A stretch of 24,545 bases of DNA from an uncultured bacterium. Its GTDB lineage: Bacteria > Hydrothermota > Tepidihabitantia > SM23-42. This document shows positions 2,946 to 21,374 of the stretch, piece by piece (the first letter of the stretch is position 1; the number at the start of each line of letters is the position of its first letter). Below the pieces are notes generated by a model. That model had not been told where the DNA came from, ran no database searches, and worked only from the letters and a program-made list of their open reading frames with translations. The stretch covers positions 63,745-88,289 of the forward strand of contig CAYQPW010000002.1 of the NCBI GenBank assembly GCA_964419565.1, in the 5' to 3' direction. A program made the position numbers and the translations under genes.

Positions 2946-4444
2946 TCGATAGTCGCCGGCGGTTTCGATGTAATGTCGAAGACGACCCGGTTTATGCCCT
3001 TAACTTCATTGGCGATCCGGCGCGCAACGCGTCCGAGAAATTCTTGCGGCAGCCTGACCCAATCAGCGGTCATGCCGTCCTCAGAACAAACCGCCCGGAT
3101 CGCACAGACCGAATCGTATGTTCTTTTGTCGCCCATTACACCGACACTGCCTAAAGGCAAAAGCACCGCAAAAATTTGCCAGATATCGCCATACATTTTC
3201 AGTTTGCTCGCTTCAGCGATGAGTATTTTGTCTGCCTGCCGCAAAATATTCAATCGTTTTTCAGTCACCGGTCCAACGATCCTCACCGCAAGACCTGGAC
3301 CCGGAAATGGTTTGCGCCCGATAAAAGAAGCCGGTAATTTAAGTAAACGACCAAGCTTGCGTACTTCATCCTTAAAAAGAGGCCTGAGCGGCTCGATGAC
3401 TTTCAAACGCATTTTTCGCGGTAGACCACCAACATTATGGTGGCTTTTTATTACCGCCGATGGACCGATACCCTTACCCGATTCGATCACATCAGGATAT
3501 AATGTGCCCTGAACCAAAAACTTGATGTTTTTGATCTTCCTTGCTTCGGATTCAAAGATACGGATGAATTCACGACCGATGATCTTCCTTTTTCTTTCCG
3601 GATTTTTTACGTCCGCCAATTTTCGGAGAAAGCTCTTTTTGGCATTCACTACTTTGAGGTTGATGCGAGAACCGATCGTCTGCATGACTTCTTCTTTTTC
3701 CCGATGACGCAAAAGACCATTATCGACAAAAATCCCGATAAAATTCTTGCCCACTGCTCTGGTCGTCAATGCGGCAGCAACGGTTGAATCAATGCCTCCA
3801 CTGACCGCACAAAGGACTTTATCGCGACCAACCGCACGCTTGATATTATCGACCTGTTCATCGATAAATTTGTCCATCGACCATGCTTTTTTGGCCTTGC
3901 ATACTGAAGTGACAAAATTATTGATGATCTTCTTGCCGTACTGCGTGTGATGGACTTCAGGATGAAACTGCAGTCCGTAGATATTGCCCAGCCTGAAACC
4001 TGCTATCGGCGTTGCTTTGGTCTGGGCGATCACCTGGGCATCAGACGGCAGGGATTCCACTGAATCACCGTGACTCATCCAGACATTGAAACGATTCGGT
4101 AGTCTGGCAAATAAAGGCACACTTTTCGCAGTAATGACTGCGTGACCATATTCCCGTGTCTTGCTGTGTTTTACGACTCCGCCAAGCATCTGCGCAGTAA
4201 GTTGCATACCATAACAGATCCCGAGGATGGGTACGCCCAGCTCAAAGAAATCCCTCGATAGATAATAGCGTTTCTGGTAGACGCTACCAGGACCTCCAGA
4301 GAATATCAGTCCTTCGATATCCTTGTTCTCGAGTTCATCGATATCAATGAGATGGCTGTATATCTCCGAATATACTCTGCATTCCCTTACCCGACGGGCA
4401 ATGAGCTGAGTATACTGAGAGCCAAAATCAATGACCGCGATCAT
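2936..4444 (-). CDS. guaA: GMP synthase (glutamine-hydrolysing)
   Basis: 502 aa. The N-terminal class-I glutamine amidotransferase carries the catalytic Cys in GICYGMQL. The ATP pyrophosphatase P-loop is SGGIDSTV. The C-terminal dimerisation tail ends ...KPPATIEWE, typical of GuaA. Confidence 0.95.
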   Translation of the reverse strand: MIAVIDFGSQYTQLIARRVRECRVYSEIYSHLIDIDELENKDIEGLIFSGGPGSVYQKRYYLSRDFFELGVPILGICYGMQLTAQMLGGVVKHSKTREYGHAVITAKSVPLFARLPNRFNVWMSHGDSVESLPSDAQVIAQTKATPIAGFRLGNIYGLQFHPEVHHTQYGKKIINNFVTSVCKAKKAWSMDKFIDEQVDNIKRAVGRDKVLCAVSGGIDSTVAAALTTRAVGKNFIGIFVDNGLLRHREKEEVMQTIGSRINLKVVNAKKSFLRKLADVKNPERKRKIIGREFIRIFESEARKIKNIKFLVQGTLYPDVIESGKGIGPSAVIKSHHNVGGLPRKMRLKVIEPLRPLFKDEVRKLGRLLKLPASFIGRKPFPGPGLAVRIVGPVTEKRLNILRQADKILIAEASKLKMYGDIWQIFAVLLPLGSVGVMGDKRTYDSVCAIRAVCSEDGMTADWVRLPQEFLGRVARRIANEVKGINRVVFDITSKPPATIEWE

Positions 4445-6494: not shown

Positions 6495-6520
6495 ACTCTA
6501 TTGTAAACAGATTTTACATC

Positions 6521-6548
6521 TTGTCAACTTCATAAAAAAATGTATAAT
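6521..6548 (+). promoter_or_regulatory. Sigma70-type promoter for the nucleotide-sugar dehydrogenase
   Basis: TTGTCA (6521-6526), a 16-nt spacer, then TATAAT (6543-6548). SD AGGAGA lies at 6561-6566 and the ATG at 6575. Confidence 0.5.
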
Positions 6549-6574
6549 AAAAGGACTTTAAGGAGAGAACTATA

Positions 6575-11426: not shown

Positions 11427-12511
11427 AATAAAACAAATGCATCGATATTGAAACCGCATTTCTCACAACAATAATTTCCATGCGCTACGGTTTCCTCTAT
11501 TTCGATTAATTTTTCTTTCAGTGATTTATCTTTGATATTTGTTTTCAACAACCGCAATCTCGGCAATGCACTGTTTGGAAAAATATCAATAAGTTTACTG
11601 TAGATCTCCTTAGCTCCTATCAGGTCGTTCTTTTTTTCGTAAAGATCAGCCAGAGCAAAAGCCACGGAAAAATTCTTTGGATTTTTGTGGAATATCTTTT
11701 CGTATATCGGTATTATTTCGTCGAAGAGCCCGAGTTCAAAATATACTTTTTCGAATTTCGAAACGACAAGGAATGCTCGGTCTGGATGTTGAGTCATTAT
11801 TTTATGATAATATTCTTTGGCTTTCTTCAAATTACCTTGCTGTTCATAGTAGCTGGCAAACTGACAGGAAGCAGAGAATGAATTTGGATATATCTTTAGG
11901 GCTCTTTTAAGAAGACCTAAAACGGCTTTCTCGGCTTCAGGGTCTTTCCCTTTTATGTTCTGCAAGCGGACATCAGCGAGTGATGCATAATAAAACGCGT
12001 GCCGCTGGTCATCTTTGAGATTAGCACCACCCTCTTCATAAAGTGCAATGCAGTCTCCGTAATTAGCCATATCCTCATAGATGGTAAGGATCATTTCCCA
12101 GGCATGCTTGTCCTTTTTATCGATCTTAATGATCTCTTTCAAAAAAGAAGTTGCTTTATTGAGCCGACTAGTTTCAAGCATGTCTTGGACCAGCGCTAAA
12201 TAAACCCTTTTTTCTTCGTGTTTTTTCAGGGTCGGCCGCACTGTCAGGGACTGGTGTATCTGGATCGCTCTATCAGTATCACCCTTTTTCCTGTATAGAT
12301 CACCGAGTCTTATGTAGGCATCGACAAGATCACTGTCAATAGCGACCGCTTCTTTGAATTTTTTCATTGCTAGGCTCTCTTTGTTTTCGAGCAAGGCAAT
12401 GAGGGCTTCAATATACGGCGTGTGACCAGTAGCTTTATCTCTTCTTCGATAGAAATAAAGAAAAAGAACACAGGCGATCAATGCAACGATCAGAATTATC
12501 AATACTATCAT
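11381..12511 (-). CDS. lapB: Lipopolysaccharide assembly protein B (LapB/YciM-like)
   Basis: 376 aa. An N-terminal TM helix (IVLIILIVALIACVLFLYF) is followed by multiple TPR repeats. The C-terminal rubredoxin-like metal site is CEKC…CPRC. This TM + TPR + CxxC…CxxC architecture is diagnostic of LapB. It has an ATGA overlap with the upstream lapA-like gene. Confidence 0.85.
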   Translation of the reverse strand: MIVLIILIVALIACVLFLYFYRRRDKATGHTPYIEALIALLENKESLAMKKFKEAVAIDSDLVDAYIRLGDLYRKKGDTDRAIQIHQSLTVRPTLKKHEEKRVYLALVQDMLETSRLNKATSFLKEIIKIDKKDKHAWEMILTIYEDMANYGDCIALYEEGGANLKDDQRHAFYYASLADVRLQNIKGKDPEAEKAVLGLLKRALKIYPNSFSASCQFASYYEQQGNLKKAKEYYHKIMTQHPDRAFLVVSKFEKVYFELGLFDEIIPIYEKIFHKNPKNFSVAFALADLYEKKNDLIGAKEIYSKLIDIFPNSALPRLRLLKTNIKDKSLKEKLIEIEETVAHGNYCCEKCGFNIDAFVLLCPRCHAPESFLPCL

Positions 12512-12804
12512 TCTTCTTCCTCAAATGGTAAATTGCGTAATGCGTTCAATTCTTTGCGTAGATTCTTGTTTTCTTTACGGAGTCGGTGCAGACTACTTCT
12601 GAGAACGATCTCATCAGCGAGAGCAAAGATCAATACGAATATCATACCTGCAATAAAAGCATAAAAACAAACGAGTGATAATGACATATCATTGACTTTT
12701 TGGCCAAAAACATCGAGATCGACTCGTGCCTGGGAATTAAGTACCATAAACCCGATCATAAAACCGATGACCAAGATCACAAAGACAAGTCCAACAAAGC
12801 GCAT
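12508..12804 (-). CDS. lapA: Lipopolysaccharide assembly protein A (LapA/YciS, DUF1049-like)
   Basis: 98 aa. It has two TM helices and a charged coiled C-terminal tail (LRKENKNLRKELNALR). It lies immediately upstream of lapB with a 4-nt overlap, as in lapA-lapB operons. SD AGGAGG lies 5 nt upstream of the ATG. Confidence 0.75.
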   Translation of the reverse strand: MRFVGLVFVILVIGFMIGFMVLNSQARVDLDVFGQKVNDMSLSLVCFYAFIAGMIFVLIFALADEIVLRSSLHRLRKENKNLRKELNALRNLPFEEEE

Positions 12805-12819
12805 TAGACCTCCTGTTTA

Positions 12820-12848
12820 ATCATATACAATATGGATTATTTGTCAAT
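12820..12848 (-). promoter_or_regulatory. Sigma70-type promoter for lapA-lapB
   Basis: On the minus strand: TTGACA (plus coords 12843-12848), a 16-17 nt spacer, then TATGAT (~12820-12825). The SD AGGAGG (12809-12814) and ATG follow. Phased A-tracts lie upstream at 12850-12895. Confidence 0.5.
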
Positions 12849-12970
12849 ACGTAATTTGGTCTATTTGGTTTGTTTAGTTTATTTGGTTTATTTTATTTCT
12901 TCCTAGTGATTAGTGTAAGTATCCTCCATTTCTCCCTTTCTCCTATTCTCCGTTACTTTCTTTTAACGCC

Positions 12971-13005
12971 TTACTCTTTACTCCCTACTCTCTACTCCCT
13001 ACTCT
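12971..13005. repeat. Five tandem heptamer repeats YTACTCY inside a ~95-nt homopyrimidine tract
   Basis: The repeats are TTACTCT, TTACTCC, CTACTCT, CTACTCC, CTACTCT, running contiguously from 12971 to 13005. They are embedded in a tract at 12915-13010 that is almost purely C/T on the + strand. The tract lies directly upstream of the ddl -35. Confidence 0.8.
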
Positions 13006-13010
13006 TCCCC

Positions 13011-13038
13011 TTGACTCATTTCATTTGCTGATTATCAT
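13011..13038 (+). promoter_or_regulatory. Sigma70-type promoter for ddl; the -10 ends 5 nt before the ATG (leaderless candidate)
   Basis: TTGACT (13011-13016), a 16-nt spacer, TATCAT (13033-13038), then the ATG at 13044. Confidence 0.45.
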
Positions 13039-13043
13039 ATTGT

Positions 13044-13976
13044 ATGGAAAAAGAACGAAAATTCTTCATGAAAAAGAATATCGCTGTTTTATACGGGGGC
13101 TGGTCTTCAGAAAGAGATATCTCGCTTGGTTCTGGAAAATGCGTTATGCAATCTTTGAAAAAACAGGGATTTAAGACTAAAGGTATCGATGTCGACAAGA
13201 AATTTACGAGTAAACTCAAAGGTATCGATGTCGCCTTTATCGCGCTCCATGGTAAACCCGGTGAGGATGGTTCGGTTCAAGGTATCCTGGATTTTTTGGA
13301 TATCCCCTATACTGGTTCTGGTGTCCTGGGTTCTGCAATCGGCATGGATAAAGTTGTATCCAAGTATCTCTTTGAGATAAACGGCATACCAACACCGGAT
13401 TTTTACTTTGAAGATAATATCGATATCGACGAGATCATAATAAAACTCGACTTGCCGGTCGTGGTCAAACCTCGAGCTGAAGGATCGAGTGTCGGGATCC
13501 ATGTCCTCGAAACTAAAAACGATATTAAAAAAGTAATAACGAGTATGCGCCGTAAATACAATGGTCTGCTTTTTGAAAAATATATCCCCGGGATGATGGC
13601 AACCTGCGGGATACTCCACGAAACACCATTACCGGTCCTGGAAATCGCACCAAAAAAACGTAAATTCTATGACTATAGATCAAAGTATACAGAAGGTATG
13701 ACTGAATATATCGTCCCGGCCCGTATACCTGAAGTCCAGTATAAGAAAATCCAGGAATATGCACTCAGTGCCCACCGGGCGATCAGTGCTCAGGGATTTT
13801 CACGCGTGGATTTTGTCCTCGATGGGGATCATAATCCTTATGCACTCGAAGTGAATACGATCCCGGGTCTTCTTTCCGGTTCCAACCTGCCCCTTGAGGC
13901 AAGTGCCATGGGTCTTTCATATGATGATTTGATCTTCGAAATCTTGAAGACATCGCGACCGAAATTTAAACGTTGA
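13044..13976 (+). CDS. ddl: D-alanine--D-alanine ligase
   Basis: 310 aa. The Ddl N-terminus is KKNIAVLYGGWSSERDISLGSG, followed by a central ATP-grasp fold, with a typical C-terminal region (…EVNTIPGL…). An alternative start is the ATG at 13068 (MKKNIAV…). Confidence 0.93.
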   Translation: MEKERKFFMKKNIAVLYGGWSSERDISLGSGKCVMQSLKKQGFKTKGIDVDKKFTSKLKGIDVAFIALHGKPGEDGSVQGILDFLDIPYTGSGVLGSAIGMDKVVSKYLFEINGIPTPDFYFEDNIDIDEIIIKLDLPVVVKPRAEGSSVGIHVLETKNDIKKVITSMRRKYNGLLFEKYIPGMMATCGILHETPLPVLEIAPKKRKFYDYRSKYTEGMTEYIVPARIPEVQYKKIQEYALSAHRAISAQGFSRVDFVLDGDHNPYALEVNTIPGLLSGSNLPLEASAMGLSYDDLIFEILKTSRPKFKR

Positions 13977-18509: not shown

Positions 18510-18740
18510 ATGTTAATGCGTGCTTACCTGGCGCCGGACGAATTCACCGCTATTACGCTGCAGACAATACTTGAAGGTCAGGGCATCAAGGCAATGATCA
18601 AGCGCTTTGAAACGACCTGGCTCGATGGCCTACCCAAGATCATGAAAGGCGGCTGGGGTGAGGTCCTGGTCGACGAACATGATATCGTGGATGCAAAAAA
18701 ATATATCGAGGAATTTCTCCAAGATATCCCTGAGCCTTAA
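18510..18740 (+). CDS. DUF2007-like small protein (putative signal-transducing protein, PII-like fold)
   Basis: 76 aa. The pattern …APDEFTAITLQTILEGQGIKAMIKRFE……GEVLVDEHDIVDAKKYIEEFL matches the DUF2007 consensus (hydrophobic-x-A-x-x-hydrophobic-x-x-L-E-x-x-G-I … V-x-V-x-E-x-D-x-x-x-A). The stop lies 2 nt before the next gene. Confidence 0.65.
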   Translation: MLMRAYLAPDEFTAITLQTILEGQGIKAMIKRFETTWLDGLPKIMKGGWGEVLVDEHDIVDAKKYIEEFLQDIPEP

Positions 18741-20402: not shown

Positions 20403-20430
20403 TTGACACAATACATTCTGTCGCTATAAT
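20403..20430 (+). promoter_or_regulatory. Consensus sigma70 promoter for the lipoprotein gene; leaderless candidate
   Basis: TTGACA (20403-20408), a 16-nt spacer, then TATAAT (20425-20430). The ATG at 20436 lies 5 nt after the -10. Confidence 0.55.
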
Positions 20431-20435
20431 AACGA

Positions 20436-21374
20436 ATGAGATTACGTTTTGCCATCATCTTGATTATCCTTTTCCTGATTAACTGCCCCAAAGCCTATAA
20501 ACCCGATGTTGAGAGTATCGAGGTTTTGTATCTGTCTTCATTACATGATGATATCTATCGGGACAAACCAATCCTTGCTGGAATAAAAGAACTCCACGGC
20601 TTCAAAGTCGGCCATCTCAAAACAAATCCACCATTTCTTAGCATAATCATGGGGCGTCTGGGGTTCTATGAATTGCTCAATAATACGGGTATAGATTTTG
20701 TCGTCGCCGATTCTCTCACCTTTTGGACCGATAATATCAATTACTTTCTAATACCTGAATCAATGGGTTATGCTATTAAAAACCATGAGGGGATAAGGTT
20801 TGCCATTTTGCGAAAAGACAAAGATATTCTAACTATCGATGACGAAATACGGATATCACTGGTAAAACAAAGAAGCGATGTTCTCTGGATAATCGAGAAT
20901 ACACTAATCGATATCTCGCCGGTAAAAATAAATTTCTTCATTAAAGACCGCGGTCTTACAGATACTACTATGACCGTACTAAGCGTTGAGCCAGATTCAT
21001 CATTGCTCTTTAAGATAAAAAATTTCAAAGAAATGCTTGAACAGATTTTGAATAAAAAGACCTTTCTCGATGGTAAATCCTTCAAGGAATACATCCTGTC
21101 AAGTACCGCGCAGGATGAGGGAGTTAACGTGATCCTTTATCCACAACATCTTTTTATGAATGGTATAAAACAGGACTCGGTAAGCTTGCGGGAGATCTTA
21201 AGCAATATAATATGTGAGATGAGATTCACCAAAAAAACAATGGACAAAGAACAAATACAGAACTTGAGCACCGAAAGGAAATACGAGATCTGGGGTAAGG
21301 TGGGAAAAAATAACAGTGTTCTCCTGCCCGATGGTTTCGGGACATATTTATTCGATATGTTCTACGAATTGTGA
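20436..21374 (+). CDS. Hypothetical lipoprotein
   Basis: 312 aa. The signal peptide has a lipobox-like Cys (RLRFAIILIILFLINC). No recognisable catalytic motif. AT-rich codon usage. Confidence 0.7.
   Translation: MRLRFAIILIILFLINCPKAYKPDVESIEVLYLSSLHDDIYRDKPILAGIKELHGFKVGHLKTNPPFLSIIMGRLGFYELLNNTGIDFVVADSLTFWTDNINYFLIPESMGYAIKNHEGIRFAILRKDKDILTIDDEIRISLVKQRSDVLWIIENTLIDISPVKINFFIKDRGLTDTTMTVLSVEPDSSLLFKIKNFKEMLEQILNKKTFLDGKSFKEYILSSTAQDEGVNVILYPQHLFMNGIKQDSVSLREILSNIICEMRFTKKTMDKEQIQNLSTERKYEIWGKVGKNNSVLLPDGFGTYLFDMFYEL

Follow-up and report, generated by a model that had tools for sequence, protein, structure and literature searches.

The interval between the divergent lapA-like and ddl genes of an uncultured WOR-3 bacterium most plausibly consists of two conserved back-to-back core promoters, one of which would give a leaderless ddl mRNA, with slippage-made repeats between them that contain no sequence-specific operator. 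This reading is given a probability of about 0.6. Judged from the sequences compared, the spacer is a labile, fast-evolving assembly of short tandem repeats lying between two conserved promoters. The arrays are best fitted by slippage-generated intergenic heptameric repeats, of the kind known from Xanthomonas and cyanobacteria. The main value of the locus lies in annotation and housekeeping, and a new regulatory mechanism is not revealed.

The locus was studied within a stretch of 24,545 nucleotides (the window), and was compared with about 70 related WOR-3 loci. An earlier note on this DNA had described the interval as a divergent control region, and near-consensus sigma-70-type promoters indeed flank it on both sides, with 163 bp between the two -35 boxes (Table 1). 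The lapA-like gene leads a lapA-lapB-like operon; its neighbour encodes a LapB-like TPR protein, to which LapB models align end to end with scores below their cutoffs. Ddl is identified by NF002378 (340 bits, cutoff 243), the profile starting at residue 9. The divergent synteny of lapA and ddl is kept in about 30 relatives.

Table 1. Features of the lapA–ddl interval, in window coordinates.
Feature	Position	Strand	Basis and remarks
lapA-like gene (98 aa, LapA_dom)	12508..12804	-	Pfam PF06305, 38.8 bits, cutoff 28
lapA Shine-Dalgarno AGGAGG	12809..12814	-	Sequence reading; ACCTCC in all syntenic relatives
lapA core promoter: TTGACA (12847-12842), 16-nt spacer, TATGAT (12825-12820)	12820..12847	-	11/12 consensus
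9-bp tandem array ATTTGGTTT, 4.4 copies	12854..12898	+	TRF, 83% matches, score 59
Pyrimidine-rich tract with 8-mer and 7-mer arrays	12921..13010	+	86% Y
8-bp tandem array CTCCATTT (= TTTCTCCN), 3.5 copies	12924..12951	+	TRF; akin to heptamer unit
Heptamer array, five YTACTCY	12971..13005	+	TRF 4.9 copies, score 47; ends 5 nt before ddl -35
ddl core promoter: TTGACT (13011-13016), 16-nt spacer, TATCAT (13033-13038)	13011..13038	+	10/12 consensus
ddl (310 aa), start ATG 13044, putatively leaderless	13044..13976	+	MxKERKFF conserved, internal Met not

Core promoters and the start of ddl

The lapA core promoter keeps its position in all syntenic relatives, and from the minus strand (12847-12820) it would direct an mRNA whose short leader carries a strong ribosome-binding site, AGGAGG. 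A perfect 10-nt inverted repeat, ATACAATATG/CATATTGTAT (12825-12834 and 13036-13045), was considered as an operator shared by the two genes and was rejected, its ddl-side arm being unconserved in relatives. It is probably the product of chance and the likeness of two -10 regions.

On the other side, TTGACT at 13011, TATCAT at 13033, the 5-nt gap and the ATG at 13044 lie exactly where the earlier note had put them. Of 53 non-redundant relatives, taken as those with a Ddl identity of at least 60%, 51 have the -35/-10 pair in fixed register to the ddl start codon. These promoters have the form TTGAC-16/17-TATNAT, with 16-18 nt from TTGAC to the hexamer; an exact TANNNT ends 5 nt before the start in 31 of the 53, and most of the others are shifted by 1 nt. 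No Shine-Dalgarno sequence is visible upstream of 13044, while lapA and other genes of the window have strong ones. The gene at 20436 in the window has the identical geometry (TTGACA-16-TATAAT-5-ATG).

Relatives down to about 65% Ddl identity retain the N-terminal extension M[DN]KERKFF, its codons changing synonymously, which bears out the 8-residue extension (MEKERKFF) proposed earlier. By contrast, the internal methionine (Met9, 13068) is K, R, L, S or Q in many relatives. Because the core promoter and MxKERKFF are conserved while the internal Met varies, ddl is read as leaderless from 13044, and since its -10 box ends 5 nt before that ATG, transcription would start at or beside the A. Geometry and conservation together make it very probable that the ddl mRNA is leaderless, with its 5' end at or beside ATG 13044. 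The proposal of a leaderless ddl, already made in the earlier note, is thus strengthened by the promoter register among relatives and by the unconserved Met. In this path, the ddl promoter would give a leaderless mRNA, and this in turn a Ddl with a clade-conserved 8-residue extension.

Translation from ATG 13068 on a leadered transcript, leaving the upstream 24 nt untranslated, is improbable. A protein starting there, MKKNIAVLYGG, looks like canonical Ddl N-termini, and automatic gene calls give 302 aa here and in several relatives. However, no Shine-Dalgarno sequence precedes 13068, the residue at this place is often not a methionine, the upstream ATG and KERKFF are the parts conserved through synonymous substitutions, and in those 51 of 53 relatives the -10 box stays 5-6 nt ahead of the upstream start.

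In this WOR-3 clade, the true ddl start would then be the upstream ATG or GTG, in which case many 300-302 aa database entries would be truncated. The genome may follow a mixed strategy, since other genes use strong Shine-Dalgarno sites beside the putatively leaderless ddl. In an uncultured phylum whose genes otherwise rely on strong Shine-Dalgarno sites, ddl appears to be leaderless as a conserved trait, and TTGAC-16/17-TATNAT-5/6-ATG provides a clean rule for finding other leaderless genes in the phylum.

Repeat arrays and their turnover

The five tandem heptamers reported earlier are confirmed in perfect register (TTACTCT TTACTCC CTACTCT CTACTCC CTACTCT), with TACTC invariant in all five units. 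The same array is alternatively described by TRF as a 14-mer in 2.5 copies with 90% identity and a score of 63, against 81% by period 7. Differences within the heptamer arrays are transitions; these, and the higher-order 14-mer periodicity, are expected from recent unit duplication. Upstream, 8-mers grade into the 7-mers, and the whole pyrimidine tract comprises about 11 tandem units of a degenerate YTWCTCY(N). The tract had been called homopyrimidine over about 95 nt, of which the strong strand bias stands and the purity does not: 12915-13010 is 82% pyrimidine on the plus strand (79 of 96 nt), with 17 purines and a longest pure run of 16 nt. It is the most strand-biased 96-nt stretch of the 24.5-kb window, the maximum elsewhere being 75%. 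Closer to lapA, ATTTGGT-like units had been said to recur every ~10 bp; the units are real, but TRF assigns them a period of 9 bp. This ATTTGGTTT array begins 6 nt upstream of the lapA -35, and its A/T runs are only 3 nt long.

Among relatives, the two -35 boxes lie anywhere from 44 to 547 bp apart, and the spacer changes by non-triplet indels. Four relatives (L015, L026, L028 and L029) have repeat-free lapA–ddl gaps of 121-140 bp, with 44-72 bp between the -35 boxes. A comparison of orthologous lapA–ddl regions had been put forward as the check on heptamer conservation, and its outcome is divided: TAC-phased heptads are present in 8 of 16 spacers of close relatives (Ddl identity of at least 78%) and missing in the other half, and they occur in none of about 38 at 64-74%. 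Where present, they number 3-11 copies, with the unit variants TACTC, TACTG, TACTA and TACGC. TTCTCCG/TTACTCCG units are also found in L167, L008 and L010. The heptad array adjoins the ddl -35 in the window and in L089, lies about 100 bp away in L007, and precedes the ddl ATG by 256-298 nt in L087 and L008; overall, its distance from the ddl -35 runs from 5 nt to more than 200 nt. L012 and L088 have ddl DNA that is 98% identical, yet they differ by about four heptads. A 240-bp block in the spacers of L008, L011 and L087 was considered as a mobile element or an RNA and set aside, being absent elsewhere in the compared loci and without an Rfam match.

Other properties of the spacer persist. In all eight closest species, the 60 nt nearest to lapA are best described by a period of 9, although the units differ (TTTGGT versus ATCGTT). 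The order 9-mer, 8-mer, 7-mer and the YTAC core are shared by the window and L008 at about 20% ddl DNA divergence; persistence of core and order beyond what is expected of neutral repeats leaves room for selection. The TAC arrays lie on the ddl-sense strand in seven of eight cases, and the other 398 kb of DNA in these loci contain a single comparable match.

To place these arrays among tandem repeats generally, arrays with a score of at least 40 in 837 kb of WOR-3 loci were compared with dinucleotide shuffles. Period 7 accounted for 21 arrays against 0.2 expected, period 6 for three and period 8 for six. Thirteen of the 21 are found beyond the ddl spacer, with units that are unrelated, and in other WOR-3 clades unrelated heptamers occupy the same lapA–ddl spacer. 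The arrays have the attributes of intergenic heptameric simple-sequence repeats, namely head-to-tail units in a run well beyond chance length, a non-coding site and polymorphism in length and sequence. They do not form a dispersed family in the DNA covered: no other tandem YTACTCY was found in about 38 kb of the own genome (the window plus 13.5 kb, in extensions of 3.5 and 10 kb), and no further YTACTCY arrays were found in the flanks of relatives.

In the mechanism that we propose, function in the interval would reside in the pair of short, conserved core promoters of sigma-70 type that stand back to back. The 163-bp spacer would be transcribed from neither and would be an expanded stretch made up of the 9-, 8- and 7-bp arrays. 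These would descend from an array in the ancestor of a WOR-3 subclade, made and continually remodelled by replication slippage, as members of a heptamer-dominated class known from Xanthomonas, cyanobacteria and Beggiatoaceae. Against ongoing slippage in the population stand six near-identical contigs that agree in copy number. The arrays would be dispensable for promoter function and would act at most as generic modulators through spacing or insulation between divergent promoters, and not as a sequence-specific operator.

Alternative roles for the repeats

The earlier note had seen in the heptamers a plausible multi-site binding platform on which a direct-repeat-binding regulator would coordinate lapAB and ddl. 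In the form considered here, the heptads, possibly with the 9-mers, would be an operator array on which a repeat-polymerising protein co-regulates lapAB and ddl, which is possible but unlikely. The contiguous units with an invariant TACTC core and variation restricted to the flanking positions are consistent with it, as are an array that in the window, L089 and L013 stops 5-20 nt short of the ddl -35, the specificity of the TAC heptads for this locus and strand (8 of 16 close relatives versus one match in 398 kb elsewhere), and a 9-bp array fixed beside the lapA -35 in 8 of 8 closest species. The comparison gives no support to a conserved platform: eight of the 16 close relatives lack heptads despite identical core promoters, none occur in the relatives with 121-140 bp intergenic regions, and copy number, unit sequence and both promoter distances all shift, with about four units gained or lost at 98% ddl identity. 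Furthermore, the 240-bp block lies between array and ddl promoter in L008 and L087, other WOR-3 clades have unrelated heptamers in the same spacer, there is no second site within 38 kb of the own genome, and no candidate binding protein was identified. An unannotated small ORF (18516-18740), checked as a nearby regulator, gave a weak DUF2007 match (22.7 bits, cutoff 25.7). Compared with omega/RHH-type operators, the contiguous heptads and conserved core are found, and a conserved position relative to the promoter is not. A version limited to a Stahlbacteria-like WOR-3 subclade, in which TAC heptads and the fixed 9-bp array form a fast-co-evolving operator coupling lapAB and ddl, is quite unlikely; if true, the operator system would couple LPS-assembly (lapAB) and peptidoglycan-precursor (ddl) genes.

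It is very improbable that the array is a contingency locus, where 7-bp gains and losses alter promoter spacing or phasing and so switch ddl or lapAB. The array is a pyrimidine-rich 7-bp repeat upstream of envelope genes, its copy number varies among related genomes, including a near-strain-level pair, and the (ATCTTTC)n repeats of Haemophilus influenzae hmw offer a precedent (PMC12721329). However, five imperfect units are present here, compared with 11-63 perfect ones in hmw (PMC12721329), and the array lies upstream of the -35, outside promoter elements and transcribed leader. The features of a phase-variable contingency locus, a long near-perfect tract and heterogeneity within a population, are not seen: array length, as given by assembled consensus, is uniform in six contigs (13 read) from at least five samples of a population that is 99.96-100% identical. 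Moreover, ddl is an essential housekeeping gene, and as such an unlikely on/off target.

Action of the tract through DNA structure, either as a curved UP-like element for lapA or as H-DNA that modulates supercoiling between the promoters, is very improbable. The purine/pyrimidine strand asymmetry is the strongest in the window, and an A+T-rich periodic segment with conserved periodicity lies upstream of the lapA -35. Curved or UP-like A-tracts need runs of at least 4 nt in 10-11 bp phase, whereas the period here is 9 bp and the runs are A3; curvature by an approximate wedge model peaks at a single point, in the 92nd percentile, with ordinary values elsewhere, and the same model predicts the heptamer tract to be unusually straight. 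The suggestion of curved UP-like A-tracts is therefore weak. Triplex formation, also raised earlier, finds no support: H-DNA requires a mirror repeat whose arms run without interruption for at least about 10 nt, while the tract has no mirror repeat with arms of at least 6 nt, no pure pyrimidine run in it exceeds 16 nt, and every unit is broken by a purine, once per 7-8 nt. Both structural features are missing in the relatives with 121-140 bp intergenic regions.

A structured RNA and a small protein were also considered and rejected. Rfam gave nothing in the whole window at the gathering threshold, nor in 12750-13100 at E<=1; no tRNA or tmRNA genes were found, and the predicted fold of either strand is poorer than that of shuffled controls (z = +2.2 and +2.85). 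The 53-aa ORF at 12870-13031 has a TTG start, no Shine-Dalgarno sequence, no Pfam match and non-triplet indels in relatives.

Comparison with known systems

Leaderless mRNAs with a -10 box a few nucleotides before the start codon are well known in Actinobacteria, Deinococcus and archaea. The putative ddl transcript resembles them in a -10 that ends 5-6 nt before ATG or GTG, in having no Shine-Dalgarno sequence and in a geometry conserved in orthologues. Among operators, omega of pSM19035 is a ribbon-helix-helix repressor that binds 7-bp heptads and MetJ binds 8-bp boxes, both polymerising on their repeats. The WOR-3 arrays are like these omega and met-box arrays in their contiguous 7- or 8-bp direct repeats beside promoters. 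The omega and MetJ arrays, however, keep both their sequence and their position and are bound by a known cognate ribbon-helix-helix protein, and neither holds here.

Like the (ATCTTTC)n tracts of hmw1A and hmw2A, the array repeats a pyrimidine-rich 7-bp unit in tandem ahead of an envelope-related gene (PMC12721329, PMC8262952). The hmw tracts are transcribed into a 5' UTR hairpin that RNase III cuts, and are variable within strains (PMC12721329, PMC8262952), unlike the heptamer array, which would be untranscribed as judged from the promoter motifs. The repeat-bearing regulatory regions of hmw also take part in inversions (PMC12721329, PMC8262952), a parallel to the rearrangement in L172. Another likeness is to the TAACTGA repeats of marine Beggiatoaceae, Cyanobacteria and Bacteroidetes, which are short heptamer sets, intergenic and upstream of genes (PMC4679880). 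The TAACTGA unit superficially resembles the TTACTGC and CTACTGC variants of L087 and L089, and differs in sequence from YTACTCY. With 2-6 copies lying a few nucleotides from start codons, these sets presumably belong to the 5' UTR, and a post-transcriptional role was proposed for them (PMC4679880). The heptamer array, unlike TAACTGA, would be outside the mRNA because it lies upstream of the -35 of a leaderless ddl.

In many prokaryotes, heptanucleotides form the commonest class of long simple-sequence repeats, for which an origin by polymerase slippage has been proposed (PMC4679880, summarising Mrazek et al. 2007). The Xanthomonas (GGGAATC), Nostoc (GGGGAYT) and cyanobacterial STRR heptamers, for which no function is established, are likewise non-coding, head-to-tail 7-nt units (PMC4692102, PMC4679880). 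In Xanthomonas, the same genes flank the repeats across related species while their length and sequence vary extensively (PMC4692102). The WOR-3 arrays are like these families in the excess of period 7 over periods 6 and 8, and in a site that is kept with variable content. In those families, one unit recurs at tens to hundreds of dispersed sites in a genome, and some of the families are rich in G and prone to form quadruplexes, whereas YTACTCY and the other TAC heptads occupy one locus in the DNA examined, are pyrimidine-rich and non-G4, and are accompanied by related 8-mers and separate 9-mers. The known over-representation of intergenic heptamers is thereby extended to WOR-3. Their turnover is documented for one orthologous site in about 16 species-level lineages, a series that would be useful for studying the origin and persistence of such repeats and the rearrangements to which they occasionally give rise.

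Intergenic interval and its tandem arrays

The divergent genes lapA, followed downstream by a LapB-like TPR/zinc-ribbon gene, and ddl, on the plus strand (NF002378 match, 340 bits), are separated by an interval carrying three short tandem arrays, with nothing comparable in the rest of the 24.5-kb window by Tandem Repeats Finder (TRF). The earlier note had described units recurring about every 10 bp on the lapA side; these are real, but their period is 9 bp. The five heptamers it had listed stand in perfect register (TTACTCT TTACTCC CTACTCT CTACTCC CTACTCT, 12971-13005), and the 8-mers (TTTCTCCN) and 7-mers (YTACTCY) are variants of a single motif, which combine to make 12921-13010 86% pyrimidine. 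The supposed homopyrimidine tract, 12915-13010, is pyrimidine-rich (82%) with the strongest strand bias of any stretch in the window, but 17 purines interrupt it, leaving no pure pyrimidine run longer than 16 nt. No indication of an RNA element was found in the interval.

Positions of features in the window
Feature	Position	Strand	Description	Source
LapA-domain gene (lapA)	12508-12804	minus	PF06305	
lapA-ddl interval	12805-13043		239 bp, between divergent genes	
lapA promoter	12847-12820	minus	TTGACA-16-TATGAT, 11/12 matches	consensus scan
9-bp array	12854-12893		ATTTGGTTT x4.4	TRF
8-bp array	12924-12951		CTCCATTT x3.5	TRF
7-bp array	12972-13006		TACTCTC x4.9 (alternatively 14-mer x2.5, 90% identity)	TRF
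ddl promoter	13011-13038	plus	TTGACT-16-TATCAT, 10/12 matches	consensus scan
Second leaderless-type promoter	20403-20408 (TTGACA), 20425-20430 (TATAAT), 20436 (ATG)		spacings 16 nt and 5 nt	

Two structural proposals were set aside on their own terms. Curved, UP-element-like DNA disagrees with the 9-bp period, the A3 runs and an unexceptional wedge-model curvature (an approximate estimate), and a triplex with the absence of any mirror repeat with arms of at least 6 nt.

Elsewhere in this genome, the two genes of a divergent pair are only 80 bp apart (6495-6574), with overlapping opposed -35 boxes (TTGACA/TTGTCA), which shows the normal compactness of divergent promoters here against the 239-bp region. 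About 200 bp past the right window end (L174:2714-2813, same genome) lies a tandem array of the 36-nt unit TTTCTGCCCGATGAATCGGGTAACTACAGGGATTGA (2.8 copies, 98% identical), which overlaps a called 40-aa ORF and contains the hairpin CCCGATGAATCGGG; the lapA-ddl spacer of the relative L010 has a hairpin like it, CCCGATTCATCGGG. A Y1 (IS200-type) transposase gene is located about 100 bp past the left end (L173:11063-11965, same genome).

Core promoters and the start of ddl

Orthologous loci were drawn from 80 species-representative genomes, 80 metagenome contigs and four targeted look-ups, whose Ddl homologues carry the names candidate division WOR-3 or Candidatus Stahlbacteria. Together they supplied about 70 non-redundant regions upstream of ddl, 53 of them with Ddl identity of at least 60%.

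The best-supported reading is that ddl is very probably leaderless and encodes an 8-aa N-terminal extension, as the earlier note proposed. It was accepted because peptide and promoter register are conserved, a Shine-Dalgarno sequence is absent before 13044, and a second gene has identical geometry. The N-terminal M-[D/N]-K-E-R-K-F-F is kept in relatives down to about 65% identity, with many third-position codon changes (CGA/CGT/CGG/CGC, AAA/AAG, TTC/TTT); in many relatives the internal Met at 13068 is replaced by K, R, L, S or Q, and within the 310-aa protein the Ddl family profile match starts at residue 9. The consensus scan confirmed the ddl boxes reported earlier, with 5 nt from the -10 box to ATG 13044. 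TTGAC lies 16-18 nt from a hexamer ending 5 nt before the start codon in 51 of the 53 relatives; an exact TANNNT occupies the -10 register in 31, and most others are shifted by one base. Unlike ddl, lapA (AGGAGG, 12809-12814) and several other window genes have a strong Shine-Dalgarno. The second gene (20436-21374) is a 312-aa ORF without a Pfam or NCBIfam match.

On the lapA side, every syntenic relative keeps the positions of the AGGAGG RBS, the -10 (TATGAT or TATTAT) and the -35 (TTGACA), so both core promoters, only about 75 bp in total, are conserved. A 10-nt perfect inverted repeat beside both -10 boxes (ATACAATATG, 12825-12834; CATATTGTAT, 13036-13045) is probably fortuitous, since relatives do not keep its arm on the ddl side.

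Repeat turnover in the spacers of relatives

Across relatives, the two -35 boxes lie between 44 and 547 bp apart. In four of them (L015, L026, L028, L029) the entire intergenic region is repeat-free and 121-140 bp long, and repeats are therefore unnecessary for the promoters' existence. Within the close clade, repeats recur without ever being identical: about seven CTACTGC/TTACTGC units occupy the whole spacer of L089, about 11 units precede a 240-bp block in L087, L013 has about nine CTACTAY/CTACTGC units, L008 combines 3-4 heptamers with TACTCCGT 8-mers, and L007 has five CTACGCT/CTACTCA units near lapA and AGTTCCT units near ddl; L170, L010, L011 and L088 have no such heptads. Of the 16 non-redundant spacers at Ddl identity of at least 78%, 8 contain a TAC-phased run (TAC at exact 7-nt spacing at least three times), seven on the ddl-sense strand and one inverted; none of about 38 at 64-74% does, and the remaining 398 kb of locus DNA holds only one. 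The ddl DNA of L012 and L088 is 98.2% identical, yet the two differ by about four heptads. Units of one array differ by transitions, and arrays often show a 14-nt higher-order periodicity, the pattern that recent unit duplication would produce. On the lapA side, 9 bp is the best period in 8/8 closest species and arrays start 50-52 nt from the lapA ATG, with units varying from TTTGGT-type to ATCGTT-type. The comparison of related lapA-ddl regions that the earlier note had proposed shows conserved core promoters and variable heptads.

Six same-population contigs (99.96-100% identical) are invariant in repeat length; the sole polymorphism in the checked span 12781-13200 is a SNP, 12962 T>A, with T in the window, L003, L004 and L005 and A in L001 and L002.

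The spacer of L171 (2532-3000; 85% Ddl identity) contains two direct copies of a segment of about 110 bp, each with a degenerate heptad run (CATTACTCCCTACCCACAACACTCTACGG). A block of about 240 bp with small hairpins (AATCCCAGTGGGATT) is shared at 75-95% identity by L008:2705-2945, L087:2904-3150 and L011:547-760 (approximate); it is absent from the window and from the other compared loci, and has no Rfam match. In L172 (1965-1999; 86% Ddl identity), a BNR/T9SS-tail gene replaces lapAB beside ddl, and homology to the window restarts at 13001, within the last heptamer. An inverted copy of the heptamer array, GAGTAGG x4.7, 89% identical to window 13005-12971, sits where the called BNR/T9SS-tail gene encodes its signal peptide (…LLLTHYSVLPTLLHA…), which suggests that a rearrangement took place at the array and that repeat DNA may have been recruited as coding sequence.

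Origin of the arrays and known heptamer repeats

The preferred explanation, with a probability of roughly 0.6, is that two conserved core promoters flank an untranscribed spacer, inflated from an ancestral array by slippage-generated short tandem repeats. The arrays would be dispensable, probably with at most generic effects via spacing or insulation of the divergent promoters. The main rival is a repeat-binding regulator, for which the earlier note proposed the heptamers as a plausible platform. It would fit a TAC core that persists specifically at this locus and on this strand, and a 9-mer array that keeps its position, but it is unlikely given that half of the close relatives are without heptads, array position and copy number shift, heptads are gained or lost at near-strain level, and the DNA examined holds no second site. 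Phase variation through the array is also unlikely: whereas the Haemophilus influenzae hmw1A/hmw2A tracts comprise 11-63 perfect, transcribed units (PMC12721329), this array, with only five units, all imperfect copies, sits upstream of the -35 and shows no variation among the population contigs.

The earlier observation is partly confirmed and its interpretation partly supported: its promoters, leaderless ddl and N-terminal extension stand, and its regulator platform, curved UP element and triplex do not. In practice, the comparison corrects the start of ddl in this clade and yields a rule of promoter geometry with which leaderless genes can be sought in WOR-3; it also illustrates heptamer repeat turnover at one orthologous site.

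A-rich heptamers (AAATTCG, AAATCCG, AAATTCT, AAATCCT) recur in several other WOR-3 clades, in the lapA-ddl spacer (L092, L100, L104, L088, L024) and elsewhere (L133:424-457, L083:2484-2514, L046:6281-6321), and may form a dispersed family in those genomes. The distant relative L046 (48% identity) has CCGCATC x4.4 and TCCGAAT x7 within its ddl-matching region (3365-3413).

Both lapA-ddl features, the heptameric repeat in intergenic DNA and the leaderless promoter, are of types already known. Across 837 kb of non-redundant WOR-3 loci (TRF score at least 40), 21 period-7 arrays were observed against 0.2 in dinucleotide shuffles, a sharp excess, with 3 arrays at period 6 and 6 at period 8. Thirteen lie outside the ddl spacer with unrelated units (e.g. 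CGCCTAC, GGCTAAC, AAATTCG, AAATCCG, GATTGCA, ACATAAG), and in other WOR-3 clades the same spacer carries the unrelated AATCCTA, TTTTGCC and TGCCTTT. This excess and the spacer turnover agree with published cases: in many prokaryotes no class of long simple-sequence repeat is more abundant than heptanucleotides, with polymerase slippage as the proposed cause (PMC4679880, summarising Mrazek et al. 2007), and in Xanthomonas and Nostoc heptamer repeats are over-represented in intergenic DNA, where related species have them flanked by the same genes but with extensive variation in length and sequence (PMC4692102).
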